DNA from: Escherichia coli
Lineage (GTDB): Bacteria > Pseudomonadota > Gammaproteobacteria > Enterobacterales > Enterobacteriaceae
Direction: 5' to 3' (one strand)
Length of the DNA: 64,000 nucleotides
Assembly (NCBI RefSeq): GCF_016026235.1
Contig: NZ_CP065613.1
This document shows, piece by piece, positions 57,535-58,279 of this stretch (the first letter of the stretch is position 1; each line of letters begins with the position of its first letter). The position numbers were made by a program, and so were the translations under genes. The notes under the pieces were generated by a model that had not been told where the DNA came from, did no database searches, and saw only the letters and a list, made by a program, of their open reading frames with translations.

Positions 57535-57554
57535 TTTTTTTACCTGCGCGCAAT

Positions 57555-57640
57555 GCTCTCCCCGCCTCGCCCGCCCGCTTTGCGGGGCGGTTTTAATGCA
57601 GTTGCACTGACACGCTCAGACCGCGCCGGGAATGGCGCGG
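57555..57640. terminator. pair of GC-rich hairpins between convergent genes
   Basis: ccgcccgctttgcggggcgg followed by tttta, and a perfect 11-bp stem cagaccgcgcc-gggaat-ggcgcggtctg. Confidence 0.5.
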
Positions 57641-57735
57641 TCTGCAGAAAATGAGGCAGGGAAACGCATGCAAAGCCATGCACCTTATCGATGCATGGCT
57701 TTTTTCAGTAAAAACAGGCGGATTTTCGGGGAATT

Positions 57736-58279
57736 TTACACAGACTGACGTGATGCCAGTTGCGCACTTTTACGCGAAAAAATCATGTTCTGCGCAGGGG
57801 TGAATTTTTCACGGCTGTCATCCACCGAAGCCGCGTCAGGCCTGAATCCGATGGTCGTTAAAATGTCGCTATCCTGTGCGGAATAATTAATTTTTTCACC
57901 CTTCGCAAGCCAGGACAGGAGGGCTTCACGCAGGGCATCTGTGGCACGCTGTATGGCACAGTTTCGGGCAATGGCCGTCAGCTCACTGTAGCCCATCAGC
58001 TCCGGTGCCAGTGCCGCCGCCAGTGCTGTGCCGTGCTGCTGCATAAAATCATTCAGCCGGTCGCGGATGCTGATGTGCTGAACGGCTTCATGCGAACGAA
58101 TATAACGACCGGCGGCCTGATTCACCTGCCATTTTCTGACTTCGATAATATTGCGTAATTCGTCCAGGCGACTGACGTTTCTGCCTTCTCCTGACAGAAG
58201 CCGCAGATATTCCTGTTCGGCCGCAGCCAGCTCATTTTTGCGTTGCAGCCATGCTGCTTTGTTATTCTGACAGGTGTCA
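57736..58279 (-). pseudogene. 5-prime-truncated ORF of unknown function, cut by the IS1 left end
   Basis: 185 aa track ORF whose first codons lie inside the IS1 inverted repeat (IS1 starts at 58280), so the native N-terminus is missing; GC content differs from the RT region; product not recognised. Confidence 0.45.

Follow-up and report, generated by a model that had tools for sequence, protein, structure and literature searches.

The window, by which we mean the whole stretch of 64,000 nucleotides of Escherichia coli DNA that was analysed, contains a short interval between the membrane-protein gene of a reverse transcriptase (RT) module and a copy of IS1. This interval carries several hairpins and a minus-strand open reading frame (ORF) that runs into IS1, and it raises the question of what the ORF encodes, how it came to end at IS1 and whether it belongs together with the RT module. 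An initial annotation did not recognise the product, assumed that the start of the ORF had been lost to IS1 and suggested that an earlier occupant may have left the ORF behind in the island. The features that it described are all present where it had placed them, including the minus-strand ORF at 57736-58279. We are highly confident that the interval forms the end of the right arm of a P4-like phage satellite that has integrated at the tRNA gene leuX. In P4, the late operon sid-δ-psu ends with psu (polarity suppression), whose product both decorates the small P4 capsid and inhibits the transcription terminator Rho. In the intact phage, psu is followed by a hairpin terminator and then by cos, which is cut by the terminase of the helper P2 to leave 19-nt cohesive ends, and an exchangeable slot with anti-phage cargo lies between cos and int. 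According to the Rho-Psu structure paper (PMC11718236), Psu dimers cap capsid hexamers and clamp Rho rings open. In the intact satellite, P_sid drives psu together with sid and δ.

The translated ORF matched the Pfam profile PF07455 (Psu) with E=6.6e-86 and 286.9 bits, the gathering cutoff being 27.4, and covered profile positions 6-181 of 182. It aligned to residues 11-190 of the 190 residues of P4 Psu in PDB entry 3rx6, and the other matches to solved structures were the Rho-Psu cryo-EM entries 8peu, 8pew, 8pex, 8pey, 9gcs and 9gct. The product that had gone unrecognised is P4 Psu, which inhibits Rho and decorates the capsid and for which structures have been solved. The search for homologues thus led to a full-length parent gene, psu (that of P4; 573 bp in E. 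coli M19), and the ORF is not spurious. NCBIfam profiles matched neither the ORF nor the transmembrane (TM) protein encoded next to it, and PADLOC gave no match for the ORF.

At the DNA level, positions 57572-58279 of the window correspond to P4 10917-11624 with 98.9% identity over 708 bp. When the remnant was compared directly with P4 psu, 5 nucleotide differences in 543 nt and a single amino acid change, V159A, were found. The alignment breaks after the second base of psu codon 10, and the first 29 nt of the gene are gone; what is left on the minus strand (57736-58279) begins with the final base of codon 10 and continues through codons 11-190 to the stop codon TAA at 57736-57738, in a reading frame that is open up to IS1 at 58280. 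The psu promoter is absent along with the gene start, and the remnant does not amount to a complete coding sequence of about 190 amino acids with its own start. Within the retained part, no further lesions and no visible sequence decay were detected, and the Rho-contact residues of Psu named in PMC11718236 (R43, D49, E56, F169, Q173, K180 and Q183) are all kept. These alignments identify the orphan ORF as P4 psu without its first 10 codons, lying at an IS1 deletion junction, and mark it as a truncated member of the Psu family and a pseudogene. Since its promoter, its activator and its start codon are lost, we infer that the remnant is silent.

The ORF called by the program is slightly longer (57736-58293, 185 aa), as it starts at a TTG within the left inverted repeat of IS1. 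The stretch at 58280-58293 (minus strand) encodes the five N-terminal residues MAALP; this extension is fortuitous and not psu sequence. The NCBI/PGAP annotation of strain FORC_031 lists the identical 558-bp ORF as 'phage polarity suppression protein'.

On the far side of psu, the homology to P4 stops exactly at 57572, the equivalent of P4 base 11624, which is the last base of the linear P4 genome. Alignment to the ends of P4 and P2 revealed at this place a 55-bp block common to P2 and P4-like satellites, the cos core (57546-57600), which reads GCGCGC … TGCATTAAAA. It contains on the minus strand a 19-nt cohesive end at 57553-57571, GGCGAGGCGGGGAGAGCAT. The ends of the P4 and P2 records, which are labelled cosL/cosR in the P2 record, both read GGCGAGGCGGGGAAAGCAC, and the window matches them at 17 of the 19 positions; across the cut, the minus strand reads GGCGAGGCGGGGAGAGCAT-TGCGCGC in the window and GGCGAGGCGGGGAAAGCAC-CGCGCGC at the left end of P4. 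The arrangement typical of P2/P4 cos, a 19-nt end within a shared core of about 55 bp, was therefore found at 57546-57600.

The conservation of this region was assessed on 80 psu loci fetched from viral contigs, of which 19 distinct psu-downstream regions were aligned, including those of satellites whose Psu is only ~62% identical. All 19 regions have a common anatomy, in which the psu stop is followed by a terminator hairpin and a variable stretch that contains an inverted repeat, and then by the cos core, beyond which the sequences diverge. The cos core was invariant or nearly so, and the divergence was complete right after GCGCGC. In the window, this boundary to the cargo lies at 57545/57546, 11 nt past the stop of the TM gene, in agreement with the report that cos adjoins the hotspot in P4-like satellites (Rousset 2022, PMC9122126). 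Most of the aligned P4-like satellites had GGCGTGGCGGGGAGAGCAT in place of the GGCGAGGCGGGGAAAGCAC of P4 and P2, and a cohesive end ending in AGAGCAT, as in the window, was the commonest. These variants indicate that the 19-nt end tolerates at least three variable positions (5, 14 and 19). The cos site of the window would be intact in sequence but stranded.

Folding of the interval between the TM gene stop (57534) and the psu ORF, compared with 200 shuffles, yielded three hairpins. The initial annotation had seen in the strong hairpins of 57555-57640 a separation of the ORF from the membrane-protein gene. They do lie between the two, but one of them is situated in the cos core and the other is a repeat of the P4 lineage, and the range misses the hairpin next to the ORF, at 57672-57705. 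The latter consists of a 13-bp hairpin (57672-57702) that starts 30 nt 3' of the psu stop and is flanked by T-runs on either side, which read TTTTTT on the plus and TTTGCATGCGTTT on the minus strand. It folds with -16.0 kcal/mol (z -4.3) on the plus strand and -21.5 kcal/mol (z -5.3) on the minus strand, and it was nearly invariant among the 19 P4-like satellites with Psu down to ~62% identity (93.5% of cells paired). With a stable GC-containing stem followed by a U-run directly 3' of a gene, it has the features of a Rho-independent terminator; it looks bidirectional and is the predicted terminator of psu. In an intact satellite, the transcript would end at this hairpin and P2 terminase would then cut cos.

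The inverted repeat at 57617-57644 lies between the cos core and this terminator. It has a perfect 11-bp stem, CAGACCGCGCC-N6-GGCGCGGTCTG, with a fold of -25.8 kcal/mol (z -5.6), and none of the 200 shuffles was as stable. The strength ascribed to the hairpins by the initial annotation applies to this repeat but not to the one in the cos core (about 57562-57590), whose fold of -17 kcal/mol (z -1.0; 31 of 200 shuffles as stable) does not rise above its GC-rich composition. P4 has the repeat with one A·C mismatch and P2 is without it. Among the 19 satellites, its inner GCGCC/GGCGC was kept, while the outer stem was variable, with three double-sided changes and 73% of cells paired. As far as these comparisons go, the full stem occurs only within the P4 lineage.

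We considered whether, instead of taking part in packaging, the hairpins might terminate transcription or act as insulators where the cargo operon on the plus strand and psu on the minus strand converge. The GC-rich hairpin in the cos core, which abuts the cut site, was flagged as a terminator-like match on the plus strand (57571-57590), 37 nt past the cargo stop, and is followed on this strand by TTTTAAT; it looks like a candidate terminator for the cargo operon. The hairpin at 57672-57705 with its T-runs in both directions agrees with such a role, which is partly compatible with our main explanation, as this hairpin is the psu terminator there as well. The two remaining hairpins speak against it. 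The repeat at 57617-57644 has no T-run 3' of it on either strand, and the GC-rich hairpin lies inside the core shared by P2 and P4, where its fold is no better than its composition predicts (z -1.0) and distant satellites have not kept its pairing (56.6% of cells paired), while the sequence of its 3' half, AAGCGGGC, is invariant. A sequence that is kept while its structure is lost fits a recognition site in double-stranded DNA better than a folded RNA. As an account of all three hairpins, we therefore regard the terminator or insulator function as unlikely.

A further, quite doubtful idea concerns the packaging region itself, namely that the repeat at 57617-57644 might be an accessory packaging signal (e.g. 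a site for terminase or a host factor), or that the stranded cos might still be cleavable by a P2-type terminase. The former is suggested by the inner GCGCC/GGCGC pairs, which persist in satellites with ~62% Psu identity and lie outside of the 55-bp core shared with P2. If the stranded cos were indeed cut, the leuX locus would be a place where the adjoining chromosome is broken or where its packaging starts.

The assignment of psu and cos to a P4-like satellite raises the question of how far this element extends to the left. A tRNA-Leu(CAA) gene of the leuX type, the P4 attachment site, is located at 51073-51157 (plus strand), and the P4 attP core matches the 3' end of this tRNA in a 20-bp att core at 51138-51157. 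It is followed by a P4-type integrase gene (51309-52577, plus strand), for which the annotations of M19 and FORC_031 give a tyrosine recombinase; over the int-attP region, the DNA shares 88% identity with P4 2717-4101. Next comes the hotspot cargo (52669-57534, plus strand), comprising a UG5 RT-nitrilase gene and an RT-associated TM gene (56845-57534), for which PADLOC returned RT_UG5-nitrilase with 1649 bits and RTasTM with 541 bits over its full length. The interval between int and psu of P4-like satellites, next to cos, is a known hotspot of anti-phage systems, and a system of RT-nitrilase plus 1TM has been reported in the P4 hotspot between psu and int (Rousset et al. 2022, PMC9122126). 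The same architecture is described by De Sousa & Rocha (PMC8628076) and in the Rho-Psu structure paper (PMC11718236). Since the order leuX – int – cargo – cos – psu is canonical and M19 carries the same cargo beside an intact psu, we assign psu, cos, int and the RT cassette to one element, of which the RT cassette is the variable cargo.

On account of its GC content, the initial annotation had instead suggested that the ORF may be left over from a former occupant of the island; such an occupant would be unrelated to the RT module and older than it. The contrast that it noticed is real, with a GC content of 0.531 for the psu remnant compared to 0.313 for the RT gene and 0.303 for the TM gene. 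Yet the satellite backbone as a whole, psu as well as int (0.478), is close to the window mean of 0.493, which marks the AT-rich cassette as foreign, exchangeable cargo. The backbone flanks the cassette on both sides, with the int region on the left and cos-psu on the right at 88% and 98.9% identity to P4, respectively, in the canonical P4 layout, and the cargo starts at the boundary after GCGCGC that is used in 19 other satellites. M19 carries the cassette within a complete P4-like element (intact psu-δ-sid…α) at 99.9% identity. An earlier occupant is thus very improbable, and the ORF and the RT cassette are better explained as parts of the same satellite.

Comparison with M19 and FORC_031, by which the IS boundaries within the cargo were set, revealed several lesions in the RT-nitrilase gene. 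A frameshift at ~53100-53360 within 52669-55409 breaks it into ORFs of 182 aa and 683 aa; at this place, the window lacks one base relative to both M19 and FORC_031. The RT copies of these two strains are annotated as pseudogenes as well, with 'internal stop' and 'frameshifted', which may mean that the RT has been inactivated by differing lesions across strains or that this region is error-prone. Close to the 3' end of the gene, an IS4-family element (55409-56698) with a 429-aa transposase on the minus strand is inserted, with ~14 bp duplicated at both junctions. Since this element is absent from M19 and FORC_031, it represents a later, strain-specific hit on the defence cargo. A comparison of the FORC_031 locus (1-2635) with window positions 41455-51132 showed that the two have the element in common from the att core to the right and differ in the DNA upstream, with a recombinase and an HTH protein in FORC_031 and the ahr-leuX region in the window, which suggests that in FORC_031 another element is integrated in tandem at leuX.

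The right border of the psu remnant is formed by a 768-bp IS1 (58280-59047, plus strand) with both inverted repeats, the left one reading GGTAATGCTGCCAACTTACTG from 58280. With this length, its terminal repeats and its insA/insB' frames, the element is a member of IS1, and it shares 98.96% identity with an intact copy in strain DA33135. While insA is intact, the insB frame has, compared to intact IS1, a TGG-to-TAG nonsense codon at 58820-58822, and the copy is hence now unable to supply its own transposase; in FORC_031, it is annotated as 'frameshifted; internal stop'. No target-site duplication of 8-9 bp was found at IS1, the left flank CAGGTGTCA being unrelated to the right flank CGGCGTGCG. 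The right neighbour, at 59048-59332 (plus strand), is a remnant of an IS4/IS5-family transposase, annotated as a partial transposase in FORC_031. IS1 cuts through the interior of this remnant, which does not belong to P4. In strain LD91-1, this remnant extends further left and there is no IS1. With both neighbours broken and without a target-site duplication, IS1 marks a deletion junction. The loss of the psu start next to IS1, as initially noted, is confirmed by the alignments to PF07455 and P4 Psu, which both lack the N-terminus, but it was not the result of a simple insertion of IS1.

The P4-like satellite core set comprises int, psu, δ, sid, alpA, ε and α (de Sousa & Rocha, PMC8628076). 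Of this set, the window holds int and the truncated psu only, in addition to cos, and BLAST searches of the window with the P4 genome and the M19 element gave no δ, sid, ε or α, nor any further P4 DNA. A second att core was not found within the 64,000 nt at up to 4 mismatches, and the element thus has one att core, the copy at leuX, and not one at both ends as after integration into a tRNA gene. An IS1-associated deletion took everything to the right of the break in psu, which comprises psu codons 1-10, P_sid, δ, sid, the immunity region, ε, the α primase gene with the origin, and probably attR, unless a copy of the latter lies beyond position 64000. The element at 51073-58279 is therefore considered a remnant and not a functional satellite. 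Lacking attR as well as α and the origin, it could not be excised, replicated or packaged as a unit, and we infer that it can no longer be mobilised.

The identical IS1/psu junction was found in 17 of 5,426 complete E. coli genomes. By contrast, none of these genomes had an IS1 simply inserted at the psu site with δ beyond it, as queried with a synthetic junction at a query coverage of at least 80%. The deletion may therefore have arisen either in one step as an adjacent deletion or through recombination of two copies of IS1. Each of the 17 genomes with the junction has at least 39 places that match the IS1-containing query. The IS4/IS5 remnant at 59048-59332, which lies upstream of a MurR/RpiR – PTS – nanE-like cluster, is a repeated landing zone of IS1; DA33135 and many other strains have a different IS1 177 bp further right, beside unrelated island DNA.

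The junction creates a fused reading frame, and one could imagine that a protein of MAALP plus Psu residues 11-190 is made from a hybrid promoter at the end of IS1 and has been domesticated as a modulator of Rho. Outward -35 hexamers can reportedly come from IS1 ends, as Prentki et al. are said to have described in 1986. On the minus strand, a promoter-like site does stretch across the IS1/psu junction, with the -35 hexamer TTGGCA in the IS1 repeat and the -10 hexamer CAGAAT in psu. The ORF is open with its TTG start, N-terminally His-tagged Psu binds Rho in pull-down assays, and the retained part includes all Rho contacts named in PMC11718236 and departs from P4 Psu only at V159A. The position of the -10 hexamer (58269-58264) is, however, downstream of the TTG at 58293, so that the transcript would be without the start codon. 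The next in-frame start would be a GTG at about residue 62, and its product would lose R43, D49 and E56. In addition, no recognisable ribosome-binding site precedes the TTG, the native promoter P_sid and the activator δ are deleted, and Psu is toxic at high levels. The junction is also rare (17 genomes) and probably recent, which makes an intact ORF the default expectation. Taken together, an expressed and domesticated fusion is hardly to be expected, and a silent psu pseudogene remains the preferred explanation of the ORF.

It is exceedingly improbable that the hairpin region is a small structured RNA or a REP-type chromosomal repeat: a 121-nt segment does fold better than its shuffles (z -3.0 on the plus and -3.6 on the minus strand), but it is P4 DNA (98.9%) located directly downstream of psu in every locus examined, most pairs never vary and covariation is scarce, and an Rfam scan of 55000-60000 gave no family at E<=1, so that the hairpins are not explained by any known RNA family. 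A structured RNA was dropped as a candidate because the terminator is nearly invariant and thus uninformative, the cos hairpin is not conserved in structure and the repeat in the middle has only three double-sided changes.

For the annotation of this locus, these results mean that the orphan ORF should be labelled as a psu pseudogene and the hairpin region as a P4-type cos site, and that the stretch 51073-58279 is best regarded as a single P4-like satellite in decay, the defence cargo of which is itself inactivated. The locus illustrates how IS elements ground and erode satellites, in that attR, the replication genes and the late operon are lost whereas int, the cargo and cos remain. The psu-cos segment implies no new biology; everything seen here has already been described in the literature, and the element is an ordinary decayed mobile-element remnant.

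Compared with known systems, the IS1 at the psu break resembles the junctions left by IS1 adjacent deletion or by IS1-IS1 recombination, which likewise have a complete 768-bp IS1, no target-site duplication and unrelated broken flanks; unlike such junctions in general, the IS1 of the window has a nonsense codon in insB, and no intermediate was found among the 5,426 genomes. The relative with a complete element, at the leuX locus of E. coli M19 (NZ_CP010221), shares 99.87% identity with the window over 56699-58279 and has the same int, cargo and cos as well as the same hotspot boundary right after GCGCGC. Its order is leuX, int, RT, TM protein, psu (573 bp), δ, sid, immunity region, ε and α; M19 thus keeps the full-length psu through α, while the copy in the window ends at IS1 and carries the extra IS4-family insertion in its RT gene. 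P4 itself (NC_001609 / X51522, 10888-11624 joined to 1-27) shares with the window element the integration site leuX and the P4-type int. It differs in that its hotspot contains gop-β-cII instead of the UG5 RT-nitrilase and TM genes, that 2 of the 19 positions of the cohesive end are different, that the stem of its inverted repeat is interrupted by the A·C mismatch whereas that of the window is perfect over 11 bp, and that the window lacks the first 29 nt of psu, δ, sid … α and attR. In the part that both have in common, the order is the same: psu stop, terminator, inverted repeat and cos core.
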